From an uncultured Gammaproteobacteria bacterium (GTDB lineage: Bacteria; Patescibacteriota; Microgenomatia; JALYQM01): a stretch of 64,000 bases of DNA. The stretch covers positions 520,630 to 584,629 of the forward strand of contig CAYOFQ010000001.1 of NCBI GenBank assembly GCA_964403585.1, read 5' to 3'. Under the pieces are notes generated by a model. That model searched no databases and was not told where the DNA came from. It saw only the letters and a program-made list of their open reading frames with translations. The position numbers and the translations under genes are program-made. Positions 48,573 through 58,374 of the stretch are shown here, piece by piece (the stretch's first letter is position 1; the number at the start of each line of letters is the position of its first letter).

Positions 48573-48605
48573 AGAAAAGTCCAACAAATCTATATCCTAT
48601 AGTAA

Positions 48606-48634
48606 TTGACAAAATGATAAAGTTGTGGTATTAT
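48606..48634 (+). promoter_or_regulatory. Near-consensus sigma70 promoter with an extended -10 (TTGACA, 17 nt, TGgTATTAT)
   Basis: Hexamers, spacing and the TGn element read directly. Downstream is a ~420 nt leader with no credible ORF before the ATG at 49054. Confidence 0.65.
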
Positions 48635-48677
48635 GGGCAGTAACATCACGCTCAAAAACGCGCACCTTTACAACTGA

Positions 48678-48699
48678 TTTTTCTCAGCAAAGAGACATA
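48678..48699 (+). repeat. Direct repeat R1 copy 1 (tttttctcagcaaagagacata)
   Basis: An exact 22-nt match recurs at 48843-48864. Confidence 0.8.
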
Positions 48700-48709
48700 G
48701 TTACTAATT

Positions 48710-48792
48710 CCGTTCGCTTCACCCTACACAACATCGAAAAACCGCGCCGCCCCTCAGACTTGCTCTATTTACTATGTTTGTTTGGTGAGAAA
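48710..48792 (+). repeat. Direct repeat R2 copy 1 (~80 bp, about 70% identical to 49673-49751)
   Basis: Shared blocks ccgtt..cgcttcaccct and cgc.ccgcc.ctcagacttg.tct.tt..tatgttt.ttt..tgagaaa. Confidence 0.7.
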
Positions 48793-48842
48793 GATCAGTG
48801 TTGGTGTACTACACGAATTAATCTGCCCTTTAAAAACTACAT

Positions 48843-48864
48843 TTTTCTCAGCAAAGAGACATAA
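48843..48864 (+). repeat. Direct repeat R1 copy 2
   Basis: Exact repeat of 48678-48699. Confidence 0.8.
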
Positions 48865-48937
48865 TACACGTCTTCTGCTTCGATATCCGTCTCGAAAAGC
48901 AGGAACAGTATCTATAACTCTCTTGCTCTTAATGGAT

Positions 48938-48994
48938 GTATCAGGACGCACCTGCAATTGAGAACGTCACTCGATTTCACATGCGTCCTGATAC
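48938..48994 (+). promoter_or_regulatory. Perfect 13-bp inverted repeat (gtatcaggacgca / tgcgtcctgatac) with a 31-nt spacer in the leader upstream of the 49054 ORF
   Basis: Read directly from the sequence. Candidate RNA hairpin or dimeric regulator operator. Confidence 0.5.
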
Positions 48995-49053
48995 CAACCC
49001 AGCCCAAACTATTGTCTTCCGAAACCAACAAAATTCAAAGGAGGAACACCACG

Positions 49054-49656
49054 ATGACCACCGCCCAAGCCCTAACCGCACTGGCGGACTACACGCTCGC
49101 ACCGACGTTCATCAACTATGTACTCAGTCAGGTTTCCTATCCTGACCAATACACCGCGGATTCCCTGGAGCCGATGATGGCGTTGCTCGAAGATCACTTC
49201 CGAACGAGAACATCAATCTCGTTCAACGGGATCTTTGCCAGAGCAGCAATCGCGGCCCTCGAAATGGAAGTGTGTGGCGACACCGGAATGCGGACATCCA
49301 AAGGTAAAAGCCCATACATCTTCGAGTTCGACGGCGGTTACACCCGTCAAGTCACCATCTGGATGCCGCGTTCGAACATGTCGGCCTTCATCGGCGAAGA
49401 CGGACGGACAATCCGCCCGATCCAAGTCGCCCTTGAAAGGCTGAGTGTTTTGCTCAAGGTTGAAGAGTTCGTGGGGTTCGGCCCGTACGTGAGTGTTTCT
49501 CAACAACACTTCGCCTGGCGGGTCAGCCTTGAGCCGGTTCCGGAACGTCATCACGGCCCGAAGTACGCTATTCTTGACCAGAGTATCGGCAAAGTCGCCG
49601 CGTTCGCCGCACAAATGGCCGAACGTAACGGCTTTCGCCCTGTCATCTGGGAATAG
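49054..49656 (+). CDS. Hypothetical protein encoded by a GC-rich (apparently foreign) ORF
   Basis: RBS AAAGGAGG lies 9 nt upstream of the ATG. GC and codon usage (GCC/CGC/GGC rich) are visibly higher than in flanking genes. TAG stop. The ORF is bracketed by repeats R1 and R2. Confidence 0.6.
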   Translation: MTTAQALTALADYTLAPTFINYVLSQVSYPDQYTADSLEPMMALLEDHFRTRTSISFNGIFARAAIAALEMEVCGDTGMRTSKGKSPYIFEFDGGYTRQVTIWMPRSNMSAFIGEDGRTIRPIQVALERLSVLLKVEEFVGFGPYVSVSQQHFAWRVSLEPVPERHHGPKYAILDQSIGKVAAFAAQMAERNGFRPVIWE

Positions 49657-49672
49657 CAGTCACCATTCATAA

Positions 49673-49751
49673 CCCGTTCCGCACCCGCTTCACCCTTGAT
49701 CACCGCTCCGCCTCTCAGACTTGTTCTTATTATGTTTCTTTATTGAGAAAA
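49673..49751 (+). repeat. Direct repeat R2 copy 2
   Basis: Imperfect copy of 48710-48792, located immediately after the GC-rich ORF and upstream of the 49778 gene. Confidence 0.7.
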
Positions 49752-49777: not shown

Positions 49778-50134
49778 ATGAACACAACAACCGAAATTCC
49801 GGATATTTGCCCGGCGTGCCAAACATTAAACCACCCATCCGATACGTTTTGTTCGAAGTGCGGCAAACAACTGCACGAGTCGGCGCTCTCAACCACACCG
49901 TCAAAACAAATAATAATTTATCTCGTGAGCTTTTTCCTCGCGCCTTTCGGACTGTGGTGGGGGATGAAATATCTTCGTTCAGCAGATAAAAAAGTTAAAA
50001 GAATCGGCATTATTTCAATTATCTTAACCGTGCTCGCCCTGCTCCTCTCGGTAGCCCTGGTCGGGTCAATTATGAATACGGTTAATAGCCAACTGAATAC
50101 CAATATCGAGCAATATAACAGTCTTGGCATTTAG
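49778..50134 (+). CDS. Zinc-ribbon plus two-TM membrane protein
   Basis: N-terminal CPAC..CSKCG ribbon, then two hydrophobic helices. The ATG at 49778 is preferred over the track's upstream alternative start. Confidence 0.55.
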   Translation: MNTTTEIPDICPACQTLNHPSDTFCSKCGKQLHESALSTTPSKQIIIYLVSFFLAPFGLWWGMKYLRSADKKVKRIGIISIILTVLALLLSVALVGSIMNTVNSQLNTNIEQYNSLGI

Positions 50135-50224
50135 GTGATTAGGGCGTACAATAGCATAATCACCCGCACCTTATAACAAAGTAACACAGGCAGCTGCTAC
50201 TTGGCTGTCATCTTTTTTGCGCAT

Positions 50225-50605
50225 ATGTTGAAAACGTATAAAACTTTTTATTCATTCATGTTCCGTTACAAATGGCGTTTTATCGCCTTTGTAATAACCT
50301 TAATTTGCTATTCCGTTGCCGGAAGTATTCAGCCGTATTTTTACAAACTGTTTTTAGATGCGATACCTGACAAAAATTACGATGTGCTGCTTAATATTCT
50401 GATCATGTTTATCGGGCTGCGCATTCTCCAGGTATTTCTGGATATGGCCACCTATTATTTAAGTGACGTGGTAACCTTTGCTGCCGGTCGTGATGCCCGG
50501 ATAACCATTTTTAAAAAAATCCAGGATTTGGACTTTGCTTATCATGCCAGTAAAAGTACCGGAGCATTGATCAGTGCCGTAAAAAGAGGAGATGGTGCTT
50601 TTTAA
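50225..50605 (+). pseudogene. Truncated N-terminal fragment of an ABC exporter (MsbA-like transmembrane domain)
   Basis: ABC_membrane helix 1-3 pattern (YKWRFIAFVITLI..FYKLFLDAI..RILQVFL). Stops after 127-134 aa. No ATPase domain follows. Confidence 0.5.
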
Positions 50606-50655
50606 GTACCCTTATCGAAAGCAAAAAAACAGAATTAGTCGCGCTGCTCATAGTA

Positions 50656-53190
50656 TTGGGAATTGCTGCACTCGCGCACGGCATTAACATGTTCAATTTC
50701 CCGTATTACGAAAACGATGAGGGTGTGTACATGTCCCAGGCCTGGTCGTTTAGTAATGAGGGAAAATTAGCTCCGTACACCTATTGGTATGACCACGCGC
50801 CGCTTGGTTGGATACTTATTTCTTTGTGGACAACACTCACCGGCGGATTTTACACCTTCGGATTCTCCCTCAACTCAGGGAGGGTATTTATGCTTGTGCT
50901 CCACCTTATTTCATCCGTATATCTCTATTTAATAACGAAGAAACTTACCGGCAGCAAACTATCGGGGCTCGCGGCCATCCTTTTTTTCTCCCTTACCCCG
51001 CTCGGAATATATTTCCAGCGTCGTGTTTTGCTCGACAATATCATGATCATGTGGGTGCTCATTTCACTCTATTATCTCCTGGAGTATAAAAACAGGCTGC
51101 TGTACATACTCTTTAGTGCCGTTGCGTTAGCGTTTGCCATTCTGTCAAAAGAAAACGCCATTTTTTTTATTCCGTTGTTCTTCTACATTGTTTACTCGCA
51201 AGCACACAAACGCCACCGGCTTTTTGCGGTGACGCAATGGCTGTTAATAATCGGCTCAATTGTTTCGTTATATTTTGTCTACGCCCTGGTAAAAGGGGAG
51301 TTTTTTCCGGCCTACTCAACCTTAGGCGGGAACACTGAGCACGTTAGTTTACTCGAAACACTTAAATATCAATCCAGTCGAACCGGCGGGAGTATTCTAG
51401 ATACCGAAAACAGTTTGTTCTGGCAATACATGCGGCAATGGAGCGCCGAAGATTGGGTAATAATCTACGGCGGTGTTGCAGCCATGCTGTTTAATTTTCT
51501 GCTCGCTATTCGTAATTTTAATGCCCGGGTCGTAGCACTTTTTGCCGCCTCAATGTTCTTTTTCCTGATGCGCGGAGGGATTGTTATTGAATTCTATGTC
51601 ATTCCGCTGATCCCGTTATTGGCAGTTAACCTGGCGTATGCATTGACCGCTGTAGCCAATGTCTTTGCAAATATTGCACAGCGCGAACATTTGCACAATT
51701 CATTGCTTGGAGCCGCCACACTAGTCTTCAGTGTAGTTATGCTTTCTCAAGCCGGAACTGTTCGGGATAATCGCAATTTATATACATCCAATCAGGCACA
51801 ACCGCAGCGTGATGCCGTCGAGTGGATCAAGGCAAACCGTTCGCCCGACGAATTTATTGTCATCGATAACTATGGCTATTTGGATTTACGGAAAGATCCT
51901 AATAAGCAATTCAATAATGCCGACTGGTATTGGAAAATCGATACCGATAAAGACATTCTGCAAAAAAAGCTCGGTAACGATCCGAACAACATTGATTATT
52001 TAGCCGTGACGCCGCAAATGGAATTTGATATCAAACAAAGTGGGCTGAGTATTGTCGGTAAAGCACTGGGGGATTCCCGCCCTGTCACGCAGTTTTACCG
52101 CGACGGCTGGGGCGTAACTATTTGGGGAGTACATACACCGCAACGTAACTTAATGGCTGCGTGGGAAAGTTACAAACGCGATTTTATCAAAGACGGGCAG
52201 GTGATTGATCCCAGCGGAAAAATTACTACTTCGGAAGGTCAGGCATATGCTTTATTACGTGCAGTGTGGATGAAAGACCAGCCGGCTTTCTTTCAAATTC
52301 ATAAATGGACCAAGGATCATCTCTATCGGGATAACAATTTACTGCAATGGCGTTACAGCAAAGAAAATCCTGCCGCAAACGATCCCGGCTCAGCTACCGA
52401 TGCCGATCAGGATTACGCGCTTGCCCTCTTATTTGGATCGCGGGTCTGGAATGATTCTGGATTCCAAAAAGAAGCGGTTTCCATGATTCGGGCTATCTGG
52501 CAGTACGAAACCGCCGCACTTGGCAGCAAGGTCTACAGTCTTGCCGGAGAGTGGGGCGATAAACCTGATGAGCTGGTTGTAAATCCTTCCTATCTTTCAC
52601 CGTCTCATTACCGCATTTTTGCCCAGGTGGATCCCTCAAATGACTGGAAAAAGGTTGTCGATTCATCCTATGAGGTCTTAGACGGATGTACACACTCGCC
52701 GCTGGACGCCGGCCGCGGCGTTTTGCCGGCCGAATGGTGCGCTATTAACAAAGCAAGCGGAGTCTATAGTAAACCGTCTCAATCAGACTTTTCTACAGAA
52801 TACGGATACAATGCTTTCAGAGTACCGTGGCGGGTAATGCTCGATTATCAATGGAATAGGGATCCGCGTGCTCGCGATTATCTTCGCTCATTGGTATTCC
52901 TGTCCGATCAGTGGAACACGCATAAAAAGTTGTCCGCAGTATATACACATGACGGCCAGGTGCAAGAAGAATACGAATCAGCCGCTGCCTATGCCGGGAA
53001 TCTCGGTTATTTCATGCTTACAAGCCCCACCACTGCTAAAACAATCTATACTACCAAAATTGCTGCGAAGTTCTATGAGAACGAAAAAGAATCCTATTGG
53101 GAAGACCCGGACAATTATTACACCCAAAACATTACCTGGTTTGGTACCGCGTTATACTCCAATCAGCTGCCGAATTTATGGACCAAGTAA
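50656..53190 (+). CDS. Fusion protein: N-terminal GT-C fold membrane glycosyltransferase (PMT/ArnT-like) and C-terminal glycoside hydrolase family 8 domain
   Basis: Roughly 9-11 TM helices. The first-loop DE motif (YENDEGVYMSQAW) is typical of GT39/GT83. GH8 motifs TSEGQAYAL (catalytic Glu) and ATDADQDYALALLFG (GH8 signature) are present. Confidence 0.7.
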   Translation: MGIAALAHGINMFNFPYYENDEGVYMSQAWSFSNEGKLAPYTYWYDHAPLGWILISLWTTLTGGFYTFGFSLNSGRVFMLVLHLISSVYLYLITKKLTGSKLSGLAAILFFSLTPLGIYFQRRVLLDNIMIMWVLISLYYLLEYKNRLLYILFSAVALAFAILSKENAIFFIPLFFYIVYSQAHKRHRLFAVTQWLLIIGSIVSLYFVYALVKGEFFPAYSTLGGNTEHVSLLETLKYQSSRTGGSILDTENSLFWQYMRQWSAEDWVIIYGGVAAMLFNFLLAIRNFNARVVALFAASMFFFLMRGGIVIEFYVIPLIPLLAVNLAYALTAVANVFANIAQREHLHNSLLGAATLVFSVVMLSQAGTVRDNRNLYTSNQAQPQRDAVEWIKANRSPDEFIVIDNYGYLDLRKDPNKQFNNADWYWKIDTDKDILQKKLGNDPNNIDYLAVTPQMEFDIKQSGLSIVGKALGDSRPVTQFYRDGWGVTIWGVHTPQRNLMAAWESYKRDFIKDGQVIDPSGKITTSEGQAYALLRAVWMKDQPAFFQIHKWTKDHLYRDNNLLQWRYSKENPAANDPGSATDADQDYALALLFGSRVWNDSGFQKEAVSMIRAIWQYETAALGSKVYSLAGEWGDKPDELVVNPSYLSPSHYRIFAQVDPSNDWKKVVDSSYEVLDGCTHSPLDAGRGVLPAEWCAINKASGVYSKPSQSDFSTEYGYNAFRVPWRVMLDYQWNRDPRARDYLRSLVFLSDQWNTHKKLSAVYTHDGQVQEEYESAAAYAGNLGYFMLTSPTTAKTIYTTKIAAKFYENEKESYWEDPDNYYTQNITWFGTALYSNQLPNLWTK

Positions 53191-53264: not shown

Positions 53265-54578
53265 ATGTCTTATACAACCTCAATAGGATCATACACATCA
53301 CTTTATGCTCGAATATTGTCGTACCGCAAATTCCTCATTAGGTCGTTCTTCACCTTACTGTTCTTCCTGGTTTTATACGGAATCTTAATTTATAAACTGG
53401 TATTTTTCCTGAATACTCCATGGGACTGGTTCGCCGGAGTATATAGTCTTCTTACCGGTGCTTTTTTGTTATCACGTTTTGCCATAGTATTATTCTATTC
53501 GGATAATCATACCGGAACATTCAAAAGCAAAAGATACCCAACAATTTCGGTGGTAATTGCCTGTAAAAATGAAGAGGATTCAATATACAAAACAATTGAG
53601 ACGTGTATGCAATCCGAATATCCCAAACCTATTGAATGTATCGCGGTTGACGATGGCTCAACAGATAATACCTATGCCGAAATGGAACGCGCCGAAAAAG
53701 ACTTCAATGGAGTACGTTTGATCAAGTTCGATAAGAACAGAGGAAAACGCGAGGGGATGGCCGAAGGAGTTTTGATTGCCAGGAATGAAGTAATCGTATT
53801 TGTTGATTCTGACAGCTTTGTTAAAAAGGATGCCATCAAAATTATTGCTGAGCATTTCATCTATGATGATAAAGTCGGCGCAGTATCGGGTAATAGTAAA
53901 GTCGAAAATATTGATACAAACGCCCTTACCAAAATGCAGTCAGCCCGGTACGGGGTTTCATTTGATATTTTCAAAGCCTGTGAAGGTGTATTTGGTACAG
54001 TTACCTGCTGCCCGGGGTGTTTCTCTGCGTACCGGCGCAAAGCAATTATGGAAGTTATTAATGCCTGGCGATACCAAATGTTTTTGGGTACCCGGAGCAC
54101 CTTTGGTGATGACCGCAGTTTAACAAATCACGTTCTGCGTAAATGGAAAGTTGAGTACTGTATAACGGCTGAGGCGACGACCATTGTCCCCGACAAATAT
54201 AAAAAGTTTTTTAAACAGCAATTCCGCTGGAAGAAATCCTGGATCCGCGAAGGTACCAATGCTGCCAAGTTCATTTGGCGAAAACATCCGATCGCAGCGC
54301 TGTCATTTTATACTAATCTGCTCATTCCCATTTTTGGTCCATTTATTGTCGGATACGTACTCTACTATAGTTTTTACGTTCAAAATGCATTGCCTTTCGT
54401 CTATTTTGGTGGCTTGACCGCAATGAGTGTCCTGTTCGGTGCGTTTTACTATATTCGCTCAGAAAACAAATACTGGTGGTATGTGATTCTCTTCACCTGG
54501 CTTTATTCAATAGTGTTAATTTGGCAGATGCCGTACGCGCTCCTGAAACTGCGCGACACTAAATGGGGGACACGGTAA
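53265..54578 (+). CDS. Processive family-2 glycosyltransferase (NodC / chitin synthase / HasA / PgaC-like polysaccharide synthase)
   Basis: TM-flanked GT2 with DDGSTD, DSDSF, GCFSAYRR and QQFRWKKSW (the QxxRW motif). Confidence 0.85.
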   Translation: MSYTTSIGSYTSLYARILSYRKFLIRSFFTLLFFLVLYGILIYKLVFFLNTPWDWFAGVYSLLTGAFLLSRFAIVLFYSDNHTGTFKSKRYPTISVVIACKNEEDSIYKTIETCMQSEYPKPIECIAVDDGSTDNTYAEMERAEKDFNGVRLIKFDKNRGKREGMAEGVLIARNEVIVFVDSDSFVKKDAIKIIAEHFIYDDKVGAVSGNSKVENIDTNALTKMQSARYGVSFDIFKACEGVFGTVTCCPGCFSAYRRKAIMEVINAWRYQMFLGTRSTFGDDRSLTNHVLRKWKVEYCITAEATTIVPDKYKKFFKQQFRWKKSWIREGTNAAKFIWRKHPIAALSFYTNLLIPIFGPFIVGYVLYYSFYVQNALPFVYFGGLTAMSVLFGAFYYIRSENKYWWYVILFTWLYSIVLIWQMPYALLKLRDTKWGTR

Positions 54579-56108
54579 ATGCCACGACCGAAGCCCCATA
54601 AACGAGCGCTGCTGCTTGCAATGATTAGTGCCGGAATCGGGGTAGCGTTGTATATAACATACCCTTTTGCCAAAGAGATCTTACGAAATTACTCAGTGCC
54701 GTATTATTCGTACAGCAAAAAAAATATCACTTCACCCAAACCGGCCGCGCGGGAACCGGCTGTTGCGGTGCCAATTCTCATGTATCACGGCGTCGTACCC
54801 GATGCGGATCCGGAAAATACGCAGCAGGCACTCTTTGTTGAGCAAATGGAATTACTGAAAAAAAACGGCTATGAAACTATTACCATCAGCCAATATGATC
54901 AGTTCAGACAAAAGCAATTCACATTGCCGCCTAAACCGATCATCATAACCTTCGATGACGGTCGCAAAGACAGTTTCTATCCCACTGATGATGTATTTAA
55001 GAAACTCGGATTTAAGGCAACTATATTTCTTGCCACCATCAAACCTGATGAAAAAGATAAGTTCTATCTGAGCTGGGAAGATCTGAAGAAAATGAGAAAC
55101 AGCGGGCGGTGGGAGATCGAAGCACACGGACGACGCTCGCATGAGAAGGTGATTGCCAATAAACAAGGGAATACCGGAAGATACCTTACTTCCCGTATGT
55201 ATAACCAGGAGACTGGGCAACTCGAAAGTTTAGAGGATTTTAAAAACCGGGTCGAAGAGGATTACAAAAACGGTATTGAAGATATTAAGAAAAATCTCGG
55301 TCTTGATCCAAAGTATTACGCTATTCCACTTAACGATTACGGACAAAATGCCGGCGAAGCACAACCAGAAGCGGTCACCTTGAATAGAGAACTGACGCAG
55401 AAATATTTCCGGATGGCTTTCATCGAGGAATTCGTTTACACCGACAAACTTTCCAACGAGTACTATCATCTGCAAAATAATATTTATAACTATGCTGATG
55501 ATGACCCATATACGTTACGCCGCGTTGAAGTACGCAATATGCCGGCCCAAAAACTGCTCGATTTCCTGGAGGCCGAATCCCCCCGTACCCGAGCCATCAC
55601 CATTAACACCGAGCATCCTGATGACTTTAAGAAAAATACCATCCTGCGCTACGGTGACGGCTTATTTGATAAGGACGGCTTCCATCTGAAGTCAAATGCC
55701 AAAACTGCCAGTGCCAAAGCATTTTTTGGCAATAAGCGCTGGAAGGACTACACCATCGAAGCAACAATGCAGCGGATTAAAGGGCGGAACATCACCCTTC
55801 TCGGACACATGCCGGATAACTCCAACGATGTCGGATTCGGCATGACCGACAATGGCCTGTTCCTGCGGGAGACAAACAATGGTTCTGAAACCGAGCTGAG
55901 TCCGTCAATTATTATTAATCCGGTTGCCGGTCGTGCGTACAATTTCAAAATGGTCTTCAAGAGTAATACCGTTATCTGTTATTTGGATGGGATTCAGGTA
56001 TTTCCGCAAACTACCATTCATCAAACCGCCGGTTTCGCCGGATTTAAAGTCTGGGATGATAAAGAAGCGGAGGGGTTACTCAAATCGATCAAAATATACT
56101 ACAATTAA
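54579..56108 (+). CDS. Membrane-anchored polysaccharide deacetylase (CE4/NodB homology) with a C-terminal lectin-like beta-sandwich domain
   Basis: 1-nt stop/start overlap with the GT2 gene. CE4 motif 1 IITFDDGRKDS. His motifs. 509 aa. Confidence 0.8.
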   Translation: MPRPKPHKRALLLAMISAGIGVALYITYPFAKEILRNYSVPYYSYSKKNITSPKPAAREPAVAVPILMYHGVVPDADPENTQQALFVEQMELLKKNGYETITISQYDQFRQKQFTLPPKPIIITFDDGRKDSFYPTDDVFKKLGFKATIFLATIKPDEKDKFYLSWEDLKKMRNSGRWEIEAHGRRSHEKVIANKQGNTGRYLTSRMYNQETGQLESLEDFKNRVEEDYKNGIEDIKKNLGLDPKYYAIPLNDYGQNAGEAQPEAVTLNRELTQKYFRMAFIEEFVYTDKLSNEYYHLQNNIYNYADDDPYTLRRVEVRNMPAQKLLDFLEAESPRTRAITINTEHPDDFKKNTILRYGDGLFDKDGFHLKSNAKTASAKAFFGNKRWKDYTIEATMQRIKGRNITLLGHMPDNSNDVGFGMTDNGLFLRETNNGSETELSPSIIINPVAGRAYNFKMVFKSNTVICYLDGIQVFPQTTIHQTAGFAGFKVWDDKEAEGLLKSIKIYYN

Positions 56109-56112
56109 TTAA

Positions 56113-57054
56113 ATGAAACGAATTGTAGTTATTTTTAGCGTTATTTTTGTACTGCTAAGTGCGTTTTGTGTGTATTTATATTACTATCAATCCACCAGCA
56201 GTCAGGCACTACTCATGAAGCCTTTTATCTCTGTAGATATCCAAAATACGCTTCGTTCGCCCGACAATTCCTTTGCCGATGAGCCAAGCCCGAGCCCTGA
56301 CAGCCCGCTGCCCAGTGATTTTATTGACGATTTTACTGCTAAGCGAACAATTGAGGAAGCTCCGAATATCGGTGCCAGCTCTGATGCCAACTGGTGGGTT
56401 AACTCCGGCGGCCAGTTTGTCATCGAAAAGGGAATTGGTAAAACCATGCAGGGCGACGCACCCGATTCTTCCCGCTGGTACGAAGCGTATAAGCGTACAA
56501 CTCCCGTGGATACAGATGACGGCCGTCATCCGCAAAATATTTTCAGATTGGTACTGCGGTCGGATTGGCGGGATTATACCCAGCAGGTATACGCACAAGT
56601 TCTCAAAGATAACATCAGTAATAGTCAGTCACGCGACGACTCCAACGGACTGTTCTTGTTCAACCGGTACGTAAACGGCGATAATGTCTATTACACAGGG
56701 TTACGTGTTGACGGGGCAGTCGTGATCAAGAAAAAATACAAAGGTGCGTACTATACCATGGGGTATAAAAAGATTCTGAATTTACCAAAGTACCATCGTA
56801 CCGACAATCCGAACTTACTTCCAAAAGATACCTGGATTGGCATTAAAAGTACCGTAACCAGTCTCGAAGACAATAAGGTCAAAATAGATTTCTATACCGA
56901 TATTGGCGCAACCGGAACCTGGAAATTAGGGATTTCGGCAACCGACGACAATAAAGCCTATGGCGGCCCAAGTTTAGCTAAAGCAGGCCATGCCGGTATC
57001 CGTACTGACTTTATGGATGTACAATTTAAGGAGTATAAGATTTCGGGAATATAA
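56113..57054 (+). CDS. Secreted protein with a concanavalin/LamG-like (DUF1080-type) domain
   Basis: Signal anchor. PS-rich linker. C-terminal AGHAGIRTDFMDVQFKEYKI resembles the DUF1080 terminal strand. Confidence 0.45.
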   Translation: MKRIVVIFSVIFVLLSAFCVYLYYYQSTSSQALLMKPFISVDIQNTLRSPDNSFADEPSPSPDSPLPSDFIDDFTAKRTIEEAPNIGASSDANWWVNSGGQFVIEKGIGKTMQGDAPDSSRWYEAYKRTTPVDTDDGRHPQNIFRLVLRSDWRDYTQQVYAQVLKDNISNSQSRDDSNGLFLFNRYVNGDNVYYTGLRVDGAVVIKKKYKGAYYTMGYKKILNLPKYHRTDNPNLLPKDTWIGIKSTVTSLEDNKVKIDFYTDIGATGTWKLGISATDDNKAYGGPSLAKAGHAGIRTDFMDVQFKEYKISGI

Positions 57055-57677
57055 TGAATAAAAATATTGTGGTGATTGCCTCGGTTCTCATCTTTGCCCT
57101 GGGATACAACTTACTGGTTGGATCAACTAAGCTGGAATCATTTGAGTGCGCCAATCAGTCGGCTTATCTGCTTTGTGATAAAAAAGTAGGCTTCGATACG
57201 TATACGTTATTTTTCTCTCTTCCACTGATCGCAGGAGTGATTGGTTTACTCTCACGGTATAATCCACCTAAGGTAATCTTAACTACCCTAATCACCTTAA
57301 TAATTTGGATTCTTACTATTGAGCTCATCTCTCATCTCCTGGTTCTTCCGGTGCTGTACACACATTTTATGGAAGGACGTCAGAGCCTTTCTTTGTCGGG
57401 ATATTTCGGATTTCGTGAGGCAGCAGGAGTGATGCTCATCGCCTTAATAATATCGCTGCTGTGTAGTTACATTGGGAACATTATCCATTTATTCGTGACT
57501 ACAAAACCCGGTCAGTGGCGCCAAACGATCCCGCGAAAAAACCTTATCTGGGCACCCGTCTACATTTTCGGTGTCATATTCTTTTCGTATCTCATTCTAC
57601 TGCTCACCATGACATCACAGCCGCGTTCGCAAATACAACAGTATCCGGTAGAACGTTTGCCTACCGAACTGAGATAA
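57054..57677 (+). CDS. Polytopic membrane protein, function unknown
   Basis: 207 aa with 5-6 hydrophobic helices. The start overlaps the upstream stop. Confidence 0.5.
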   Translation: MNKNIVVIASVLIFALGYNLLVGSTKLESFECANQSAYLLCDKKVGFDTYTLFFSLPLIAGVIGLLSRYNPPKVILTTLITLIIWILTIELISHLLVLPVLYTHFMEGRQSLSLSGYFGFREAAGVMLIALIISLLCSYIGNIIHLFVTTKPGQWRQTIPRKNLIWAPVYIFGVIFFSYLILLLTMTSQPRSQIQQYPVERLPTELR

Positions 57678-57678
57678 T

Positions 57679-58374
57679 ATGTTTACGTACAAAACCAAAA
57701 CCTACGGCAAAGGTCAAAAAGTTGTCTATCTGTTATCCGGCTGGGCGTTTGACCGCCGGTTTTTCGCTCCTGTCGCGTATGTGCTGGTGCTCGCCGGATA
57801 TACCTGTACTGTCTATTCGTACGACGCCTCAGTGCTTTCTCCGGATATTCACAAAACCATAGCCAGATTCACTGAAGTCAAGGAAAGTATTCTTGCTAAA
57901 ATAGCAGCTGACACGCAGGCAGGGAAAACACCGTATGCAGTTTTTGGCACAAGTCTCGGCGCCATTATCGGTTTGATGGTCGTCAACGAAAGCCCGGGTA
58001 TCAAAAAAGTTATTCTCAATCTAACCGGGGCTGATATTGCCGAGACCGTCTGGGGGTGGGATATTATTAAGCCTTGGTTTAAAAAGGCGCTACGGATCGC
58101 CGGGATAACCCTAGAACGGTTAAAGAAAGATTGGGCACCTATTAGCCCAATCAACAACATCGACCATTTACAGGGCAAGGATATTTTATTGTATCTCTCT
58201 GAAAAAGATGAAGTAATTCCGTACACCCAAGGTGAAAAATTTAAACAAAGTCTCGAAGCAAGAGGATACCAACTCCAATTTATACTCAATAGAAAACGAA
58301 TCCATATTCTTGCAGCGGCCTGGAACTTAATTAAGTTTCCCGTGTATATAAAATTCCTTAAGAAGACTTCTTAA
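57679..58374 (+). CDS. Alpha/beta hydrolase fold esterase
   Basis: Nucleophile elbow GTSLGA (G-x-S-x-G). 231 aa. Confidence 0.6.
   Translation: MFTYKTKTYGKGQKVVYLLSGWAFDRRFFAPVAYVLVLAGYTCTVYSYDASVLSPDIHKTIARFTEVKESILAKIAADTQAGKTPYAVFGTSLGAIIGLMVVNESPGIKKVILNLTGADIAETVWGWDIIKPWFKKALRIAGITLERLKKDWAPISPINNIDHLQGKDILLYLSEKDEVIPYTQGEKFKQSLEARGYQLQFILNRKRIHILAAAWNLIKFPVYIKFLKKTS

Follow-up and report, generated by a model that had tools for sequence, protein, structure and literature searches.

A family of fusion proteins joining a PMT/ArnT-type GT-C membrane domain to a GH8 glucanase domain, putatively acting with a processive beta-glycan synthase, and a 5'-truncated copy of it in a Patescibacteria genome

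The endo-beta-1,4-glucanases of family GH8 include BcsZ, CMCax and CelA; of these, BcsZ is the glucanase that bacterial cellulose synthase operons supply to the periplasm. In the osmoregulated periplasmic glucan pathway the synthase OpgH is accompanied by the periplasmic glucanases OpgG and OpgD and by decorating enzymes. Another set of glycan-related enzymes is formed by the GT-C membrane glycosyltransferases, among them the protein O-mannosyltransferases (PMTs; GT39, Pmt1/2/4) and ArnT (GT83). The present study deals with a gene in which a PMT/ArnT-type GT-C membrane domain and a GH8 domain are encoded as one polypeptide. It lies on the + strand at 50602..53190 of a stretch of 64,000 nucleotides, called the window here (positions 520,630 to 584,629 of contig CAYOFQ010000001.1, assembly GCA_964403585.1; GTDB lineage Bacteria; Patescibacteriota; Microgenomatia; JALYQM01), and coordinates are those of the window unless the locus of a relative is named. 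BcsZ-type enzymes are soluble, whereas the GH8 domain of the fusion is tethered to a GT-C domain with 11 transmembrane helices. Full-text literature searching on the fusion, its architecture and the system found no paper on a covalent GT-C/glucanase fusion, and none on a near-obligatory pairing of a GT-C enzyme with a processive synthase or on a fusion of a Dpm1-like enzyme with a synthase. With a little better than even confidence, we read the fusion as a bifunctional enzyme of the outer face of the membrane, part of a conserved beta-glucan module that depends on a processive synthase, in which the GT-C domain would add a lipid-linked sugar and the tethered glucanase would trim the glycan. 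A coupling of glycosylation to the trimming of a beta-glycan had been suggested in a preliminary description of the window; it is the reading best supported by the gene context of the relatives, and the function itself is a prediction from sequence.

It was found that positions 50656-53190 of the + strand form one open frame of 844 codons and a stop, and when the reading frame was checked over this interval, the GT-C and GH8 halves proved to be joined without a stop or a frameshift. The opposite strand is closed there by many stops. The single polypeptide of the preliminary description is therefore confirmed, but by homology the coding sequence is longer, 50602..53190 on the + strand, with 862 codons and a stop. 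Residues are numbered here on the 862-residue protein, counted from 50602, and only the positions of Pfam matches follow the frame from 50656. Both domain assignments were borne out by the domain searches, as the matches to PMT_2 (residues 46-201, E=1e-13, 52.1 bits against a cut-off of 26.1), PMT (56-195, E=3e-8, 33.9 bits against 22.7) and Glyco_hydro_8 (501-806, E=6e-43, 148 bits against 24) all exceed the Pfam cut-offs, and Foldseek agrees for the GH8 part. An AlphaFold2 model of the protein, built on 36 homologues, has a mean pLDDT (predicted local distance difference test) of 91 and a pTM (predicted template modelling score) of 0.83.

The GT-C membrane domain comprises residues 1-390 (50602..51771, +). 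AlphaFold2 helices and hydropathy together give 11 transmembrane segments, at 8-27, 89-116, 119-139, 144-160, 166-182, 184-200, 206-230, 285-302, 306-323, 336-359 and 362-390, with the N-terminus inside and the C-terminus outside. The orientation was set with the N-terminus inside, as in all GT-C enzymes, and the loop with the Asp-Glu (DE) motif, the middle domain and the GH8 domain are then all predicted on the outer side of the membrane; the extracytoplasmic position earlier proposed for GH8 agrees with this model. The DE motif itself, D39-E40 (50716-50721, +), stands at the start of the first outside loop helix in the sequence FPYYENDE, and further GT-C motifs are YTYWYDH at 59-65 in the first outside loop, RRVLLDN at 140-146, and K183-E184. 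Conservation was counted in an alignment of 159 non-identical fusion proteins. D39 and E40 are present in 156 of these homologues, the remaining three having gaps; Y59, Y63, D64 and H65 are present in 158, and R140, D145 and K183 in all 159. Such near-invariant motifs imply that the domain is under selection as an enzyme and not as an anchor. In comparison with solved structures, yeast Pmt2 (23.0) and Pmt4 (22.9) scored highest, followed by ALG12 (22.0), ArnT (21.9) and PglB (20.2). By Pfam, modelled fold and resemblance to solved members, the domain is of the PMT/ArnT type (GT39/GT83-like), although its identity to PMTs and ArnT is only 11-14% and its motifs FPYYENDE, YTYWYDH and RRVLLDN are its own. 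No MIR domain was matched by Pfam in the fusion protein and the outside loop at 231-284 is short, so it is not a canonical GT39 protein O-mannosyltransferase, which has a MIR domain in a large outside loop. It differs from the PMTs and ArnT also in its coupling to a processive synthase and in its C-terminal glycoside hydrolase. The preliminary description had given the N-terminal part about 340 residues; its several transmembrane helices and first loop with the DE motif stand, but the membrane part measures about 390 residues, and an alpha/beta domain of about 120 residues had gone unnoticed behind it. This middle domain (residues 391-512; 51772..52137, +) was delimited by secondary structure and pLDDT, and it is conserved even in those relatives that consist of GT-C and middle domain without GH8.

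The (alpha/alpha)6 domain of GH8 spans residues 513-862 (52138..53187, +). When this part was compared with structures by Foldseek, E. coli BcsZ came first with a TM-score of 0.84. A sequence profile comparison with the PDB gave 165 bits for CelA, 100-136 for BcsZ-type enzymes, 88 for the chitosanase ChoK and at most 72 for xylanases, and the closest NCBIfam model for the C-terminal part is that of BcsZ, NF008305, at 122.9 bits, which is below its equivalog cut-off of 299. The proton donor E545 in TSEGQ (52234-52236, +) aligns to E95 of CelA and is Glu in 141 of the 159 proteins. The aspartates D600/D602/D604 in TDADQD (52399-52413, +) align to the DxDxD of CelA with its D152; D602 is kept in 153 proteins and D604 in 148. 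These hallmarks had been noticed in the preliminary description and are indeed conserved, but the set is incomplete, as the canonical position of the general base is occupied by Asn737 in YGYNAFR (52810-52812, +).

In EbBcsZ the general base is D242, together with R245 (PMC8805304). Across the fusion family the corresponding position 737 is Asp in 90 and Asn in 59 of the 159 proteins, and a second position changes with it. Glu711 in LPxEWC (52732-52734, +), 26 residues upstream of Asn737, is found in 93% of the Asn737 proteins and in 0% of the Asp737 proteins, most of which have Asn or Asp there; the commonest 711/737 pairs are E/N (55 proteins), N/D (55) and D/D (31). Each of the two positions has changed about 12-14 times on a neighbour-joining tree, so that the coupling is not a single inherited accident. 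Judged from this covariation, the general base has probably been relocated from Asp737 to Glu711, and about 90% of family members keep a complete acid/base pair. The switch between Glu711/Asn737 and Asn-or-Asp711/Asp737 is a natural experiment on base relocation in an inverting glycosidase. Asn at position 737 need not mean inactivity, because GH8 enzymes of the Asn type are active: ChoK (1V5C) and BGlc8H (5XD0) also have Asn in the motif Y-x-Y-N-A-x-R, and Cel8Pa, which is 95.6% identical to BGlc8H, is an active endoglucanase on beta-glucan, phosphoric acid-swollen cellulose and carboxymethyl cellulose with a side activity on chitosan (PMC7490527). The fusion shares this Asn with ChoK, BGlc8H and Cel8Pa, and its GH8 domain is overall nearer to CelA and BcsZ. 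The candidate base Glu711 also differs in place from Glu309 of ChoK, which lies only 10 residues upstream of the Asn. The ChoK residue numbers Glu122 and Glu309 (Adachi et al. 2004) agree with Glu at chain positions 74 and 261. An equivalence of Glu711 with Glu309 of ChoK was considered but is not supported by the local alignment, which is weak and at its margin pairs chain Glu261 of ChoK with Gln727, a position that is not conserved.

The same fusion is widespread in other genomes. A search of 5.8 billion proteins gave 873 matches, and the best 120 of these are all 770-906 residues long, are 43-68% identical (excluding P0001, the product of the window gene itself), contain PF01270 and, nearly all, PF13231 or PF02366. 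Where the organism of these best 120 is named, it belongs to the Roizman-, Woese- or Pacebacteria or to the 'Patescibacteria group'. A scan of one genome per species found at least 582 relatives; full GT-C/GH8 fusions are spread over many classes of Patescibacteria and are also present in Chloroflexota and Dormibacterota, and proteins with GT-C and middle domain without GH8 come from Anaerolineae, Dehalococcoidia and Actinomycetes. In three loci a GH3 domain takes the place of GH8 behind the GT-C and middle domains (L051 9677-12313, L061 9956-12382, L066 2537-4810). Tandem paralogous fusion genes were seen in L025 and L029. The preliminary description knew of no described protein of this architecture; this holds for the searched literature, in which no paper on it was found, but the architecture cannot be called rare, since its full-length homologues number at least 120. 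Public pipelines label the homologues 'endo-1,4-beta-D-glucanase Y / Ara4N transferase-like', and since the proteins are already annotated automatically, the architecture is new only to the searched literature and not to the databases.

The gene context of the relatives carries most of the functional reading. It was counted with our own calls of open reading frames and phmmer against reference domains, and by a tblastn census that is independent of such calls. Of 39 non-redundant fusion loci, 32 have a GT2 with several transmembrane helices directly upstream and in the same orientation, as do 13 of 18 loci with GT-C only; the tblastn census found an upstream GT2 in 72 of 81 loci. The intergenic gap between this GT2 gene and the fusion gene is mostly -4 to +5 nucleotides. 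The upstream GT2 has the motifs DAED, (T/S)ED and QRxRW, which mark processive beta-glycan synthases and which are conserved in the 69 sequences compared. Among solved structures BcsA is closest to it; in NCBIfam it matches PgaC, EpsU and CelA best, though without reaching a cut-off, and its likeness to MdoH is marginal at 20 bits. In 10 of the 32 fusion loci with an upstream synthase, the synthase is fused N-terminally to a Dpm1-like domain, which matches the dolichol-phosphate-mannose (Dol-P-Man) synthase of Pyrococcus furiosus (115 bits) and ArnC. If separate genes are included, a Dpm1-like GT2 is present within four genes in 17 of the 39 fusion loci. Single polypeptides of about 700 residues that combine a Dol-P-Man-synthase/ArnC-like GT2 with a processive synthase were seen in L005 (5898-7997), L009, L011, L019 and others.

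Genes of the GtrA family stand at position -2 or -3, beside or fused to a gene for a flavin adenine dinucleotide (FAD) amine-oxidase-like enzyme, in nine loci. Such GtrA/FAD pairs are found in L025 (3301-5136), L029 (3643-5486), L034, L040, L045, L056 and others, and the FAD enzyme might modify the lipid-linked sugar. A Dpm1-like GT2, a GtrA-like protein and a GT-C enzyme occur together in L025, L029, L030, L034, L040, L045 and L080. Hydrolases other than GH8 are also associated. GH6 genes lie near the fusion gene in six loci, usually directly downstream, and GH5 cellulase genes accompany four GT-C genes without GH8 and are nearby in L051 and L061. Four beta-glucan-active hydrolase families have been recruited in all, two of them by fusion; this points to a beta-1,4-glucan, or something near it, as the polymer, and the repeated recruitment argues that a hydrolase held at the GT-C enzyme is functionally important. 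In Curtobacterium the parts are separate genes of one operon, namely the synthase, the GT-C (with a 4-nucleotide overlap), a DUF4397 protein, GH8, a sortase and a small GT2. In the Streptomyces sp. NBC_01506 operon (L080 5843-15197), a DsbH/DUF255 protein, the GT2 synthase, the GT-C, a Dpm1-type GT2 with a GtrA-type transmembrane domain and a GlxA-like radical copper oxidase are encoded. It was also observed that in Curtobacterium sp. VKM Ac-1393 (L069 8088-15746) the genes for the DUF4397 protein and the sortase are embedded among those for GT-C, GH8 and the small GT2, which hints at a wall-anchored protein linked to the glycan.

On this basis the following course of events could be envisaged for the intact relatives. 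The upstream BcsA-like GT2 would polymerise and extrude a beta-linked glycan, most probably a beta-1,4-glucan, while the Dpm1/ArnC-like GT2, often fused to the synthase, would make a polyprenyl-phosphate hexose that the GtrA-like protein would flip outward. The PMT/ArnT-like GT-C domain would then move the sugar onto the emerging glycan or its anchor, and the tethered GH8 domain would bind and cleave the same chain, so that chain length is set or product is released, as is done by BcsZ for cellulose. What the analysis establishes directly is which domains are present, that their catalytic motifs are conserved, how the protein is predicted to lie in the membrane, that the two halves are fused and which genes are linked. 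The identity of the polymer, of the lipid-linked sugar donor and of the acceptor, like the sequence of the steps, is deduced from these.

A number of observations weigh against this scheme. The Asp that serves as general base in a Y-D-A-x-R motif (D242/243 in BcsZ, D278 in CelA) is Asn737 in the window protein, and its GH8 activity would therefore hinge on the candidate substitute Glu711. At position 545, about 10% of the fusion proteins have Q, S, R or K where the others have the acid Glu, and in lineages without this Glu the GH8 domain may be kept only for glycan binding. The GH8 family contains cellulases, chitosanases, xylanases and lichenases, and specificity within it is not readable from sequence. 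Glucanase association was found in 65 of 81 loci and not in all. The PMTs, which are the GT-C enzymes nearest in fold, glycosylate proteins and not glycans. In the window itself, a tblastn search of the 64 kb (E<1e-3) found no second BcsA-like synthase and no Dpm1-like, GtrA-like, FAD-oxidoreductase, GH5 or GH6 gene, and between 50554 and 50656 there is no in-frame ATG, GTG or TTG, so that a canonical start upstream of transmembrane helix 1 is absent.

The proposed module resembles several described systems in part. Like GtrA/GtrB/GtrC and CsbB/GtcA/YfhO (PMC7389260, PMC11127046), some of the relatives combine a GtrB/Dpm1-like GT2, a GtrA-family protein and a GT-C enzyme. They differ from these three-component systems in that the parts sit in a synthase operon, with frequent fusion of the GT2 to the synthase and of the GT-C to a hydrolase; no donor-supply gene is present in the window. 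The combination of a small cellulose-synthase-like GT2 without PilZ with an extracellular glucanase is shared with the CslA-GlxA-CslZ system of Streptomyces, in which the glucanase is the GH6 enzyme CslZ (10.1101/2023.11.20.567928; PMC9040799). As in cslA-glxA loci, a GlxA-like copper oxidase is encoded in the L080 operon, with the GT-C branch added to it. The CslA system as described is not known to include a GT-C or Dpm1-like component, and the loci considered here are distinct from it. The OpgH-OpgG/D pathway offers a parallel in its membrane synthase, its glucanase that shapes the product on the outer side and its decoration after export, but its enzymes have other folds and the OpgH product is beta-1,2-linked.

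The window copy of the fusion gene has lost its 5' end. The gene start at TTG 50656, as given in the preliminary description, did not hold. The fusion frame is open from 50554 and homology to the relatives begins at 50602; TTG 50656 is the first in-frame ATG, GTG or TTG, and it sits in the middle of transmembrane helix 1, so that a start there would halve the helix. The next in-frame start, ATG 50731, lies past the DE motif and would drop both helix and motif; the public 819-residue call P0001 begins at this codon. Homologues are 20-40 residues longer at the N-terminus and begin with M-x(12-15)-ELVxLLxVLxIxALAHG, which is the first transmembrane helix. The nearest relatives are 63-68% identical at the protein level, and the closest syntenic one, L003 (63%), explains the difference. 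Its 576-residue ABC exporter matches the window by tblastn over residues 1-126 only, at 50225-50602, and its fusion protein matches from residue 5, starting at the same base 50602. In an alignment of the DNA, the junction (50596..50606, no strand) has the ABC gene of L003 on the left and fusion codon 5 onward on the right, with the microhomology GCGT(T/A)TT at both L003 breakpoints. About 4.3 kb of L003 are missing, which held ABC residues 127-576, a 421-residue unknown protein, the 422-residue GT2 synthase and fusion codons 1-4 with the ATG. The window copy is thus 5'-truncated by a microhomology deletion of about 4.3 kb, and start codon and synthase partner are gone. What is left of the MsbA-like ABC exporter is an open frame of 134 codons (50201..50605, +) that keeps its ATG, is homologous over its first ~126 residues and ends with TAA at 50603-50605, out of frame with the fusion; it matches positions 2-104 of 274 of Pfam ABC_membrane, and only the N-terminus of MsbA-type NCBIfam models. 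Synteny with L003 takes in the genes of a YHYH protein and a zinc-ribbon protein, spans the deletion and continues past the fusion gene. A promoter-like site, TTGGCA-17-TACAAT (50124..50152, +), lies upstream of the ABC fragment; it is a match to the consensus only, such sites being fewer than expected from shuffles, and it is the sole candidate seen for transcription into the fusion gene.

Downstream of the fusion gene, 74 nucleotides past its stop, a GT2 of the hyaluronan-synthase/NodC/chitin-synthase type is encoded (53265..54578, +), with the motifs DSD, GDDR and QQFRW, about 4-5 transmembrane helices and scores of 111 bits to hyaluronan synthase and 162 bits to NodC. It is followed by a membrane-anchored CE4 polysaccharide deacetylase (54579..56108, +) that resembles the N-terminal domain of PgaB and has an extra C-terminal domain, and by a conserved signal-anchored protein of 313 residues (56113..57054, +) without a family match, which also comes after GT2 and CE4 in the two closest relatives. 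As the GT2 and CE4 pair is found downstream of the fusion only in the closest relatives and in L040, it is a clade-specific addition and not a core partner. If the window copy is still expressed, it may serve this downstream pair.

With start codon and upstream synthase deleted, the window copy is either a recent relic or expressed from an unusual start. That it is a young pseudogene, silenced by the loss of start codon, ribosome-binding region and synthase partner, is quite possible, though we hold it the lesser chance; it would concern this copy and not the family, and is compatible with the bifunctional reading. The clean junction near 50602, with ABC residues 1-126 on its left and fusion codon 5 on its right, speaks for it, as do the lack of any ATG, GTG or TTG in frame from 50554 to 50656, the damage that starts at TTG 50656 or ATG 50731 would do to the first helix or to helix and DE motif, and the ABC stop codon, which is out of frame with the fusion. 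However, all 862 codons are open, every catalytic residue is kept, the downstream genes are intact, and of the 91 alignment columns with a conservation of at least 93% the protein deviates in just 2, where the family median is 1. A promoter-like site stands ahead of the ABC fragment, genetic code table 11 permits rare starts such as ATC 50614, which would keep the first helix, and short N-terminal tails can be exported without a transmembrane helix. A chitosan-type role in the window clade, in which the Glu711/Asn737 type of GH8 would act on a partly de-N-acetylated N-acetylglucosamine polymer made by the downstream GT2 and CE4, is likewise compatible with the bifunctional reading, and we consider it unlikely. 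GT2 and CE4 directly follow the fusion in the window and its two closest relatives, and Asn likewise takes the place of the base in ChoK, a chitosanase of GH8; yet most Glu711/Asn737 members of known context (e.g. L005, L009, L017) have no GT2 and CE4 nearby, the GH8 profile scores ChoK at 88 bits against 165 for CelA and ~125 for BcsZ, and in the weak local alignment Glu309 of ChoK pairs with the non-conserved Gln727 and not with Glu711.

Other explanations concern the family as a whole. The GT-C enzyme could be a ligase, where the Dpm1-like enzyme makes a polyprenyl-phosphate sugar primer, the synthase elongates it, the GT-C transfers the whole chain to an envelope acceptor (protein, lipid or wall polymer) and the hydrolase sets its length. 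A Dpm1-like domain and a synthase in one polypeptide do suggest a hand-over of product, the synthase and GT-C genes are near-obligatorily adjacent with overlapping stop and start codons, the Curtobacterium operon includes a sortase and a DUF4397 surface protein, and lipid-started synthases exist, such as those of pneumococcal type 3 and Salmonella O:54. We nevertheless regard a ligase as distinctly unlikely, given that the known PMT/ArnT-like GT-C enzymes with monophosphate donors move single sugars and that the GtrA-like flippases of several loci fit a small lipid-linked sugar better than a primed polymer. It is very unlikely that the GT-C domain is a bacterial PMT that mannosylates secreted proteins, with GH8 as a lectin or as a module for binding the acceptor, comparable to MIR in eukaryotic PMTs, and with no relation to the synthase. 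The tight coupling to a processive synthase across three phyla, the exchange of the fused domain for GH3, the recruitment of GH5 and GH6 genes nearby and the complete acid/base pair in about 90% of members all speak against it, even though Pmt2 and Pmt4 are the top structural matches, the partner resembles a Dol-P-Man synthase and about 10% of the homologues are without the GH8 acid residue. The lowest probability of all is given to an anchored degradative enzyme, with GH8 as a catabolic or host-attacking cellulase or chitosanase and GT-C as a mere anchor. Invariant catalytic motifs would not persist in a GT-C that is only an anchor, the gene shares operons with a synthase and suppliers of lipid-linked sugar, and no sugar-uptake genes were linked to the fusion gene in the loci inspected. 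What favours degradation is that the domain is nearest to a true cellulase, CelA, that Asn-type GH8 enzymes such as Cel8Pa/BGlc8H are endoglucanases of broad range with action on chitosan as well (PMC7490527), and that the GH8 genes of candidate phyla radiation genomes have been counted among the cellulases of carbon degradation (PMC12153355).

The genomes of Patescibacteria are tiny, the cells live attached to others, and very little is known of their surface glycans. If the bifunctional reading is right, an operon of a cellulose-synthase-like enzyme, a lipid-linked-sugar transferase and a tethered glucanase provides a specific and testable pathway for a decorated surface glucan. The GH8 genes of these lineages that are counted as cellulose-degrading capacity (PMC12153355) are probably biosynthetic instead. 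A broader proposal, which we find tentative and rather doubtful, is that a minimal BcsA-like synthase cannot do without the PMT-like GT-C as its partner on the outer face in a widespread and undescribed glycan machinery of single-membrane bacteria (Patescibacteria, Chloroflexota, Actinobacteria), where the GT-C would decorate a cellulose-like chain or ligate a lipid-primed chain to the envelope, with the tethered GH8 or GH3 as a chain-length ruler; if this were true, most GH8 'cellulases' in candidate phyla radiation genomes would be biosynthetic and not degradative. Unfused versions of these parts are found in Curtobacterium, Frigoribacterium and Streptomyces, which can be cultured, so that genetics is possible. 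Each half of the fusion comes from a known superfamily, and the interest is at the level of the family, tempered by the truncated window copy. The exopolysaccharide genes SEML1_0081-0083 of Southlakia, a cultured Saccharibacterium in which they are important for growth, were considered as a version of the module and rejected, as they are of the Wzy/GT2/Wzx type and the genome has no PF01270.

The rest of the window is ordinary chromosome, with genes for topoisomerase I, SecA, a P-type ATPase and histidine kinases. No BcsB, BcsC or PilZ module was seen, and an Rfam scan of the whole window found no RNA genes. Two places near the fusion gene differ from L003. Between the gene of the 313-residue protein and a minus-strand gene of 540 codons, at 57054-58374, the window encodes a 207-residue protein with five predicted transmembrane helices and a 231-residue alpha/beta hydrolase, where L003 has nothing. 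On the other side of the fusion gene, at 48573-49720, the YHYH and zinc-ribbon genes of L003 are separated by an Acyl_transf_3 gene, and the window has a TTG-started open reading frame of 232 codons (48958-49656) there without a family match. The GC content of this reading frame is 0.50-0.54 against ~0.45 around it, and it may be a replacement or an insertion.

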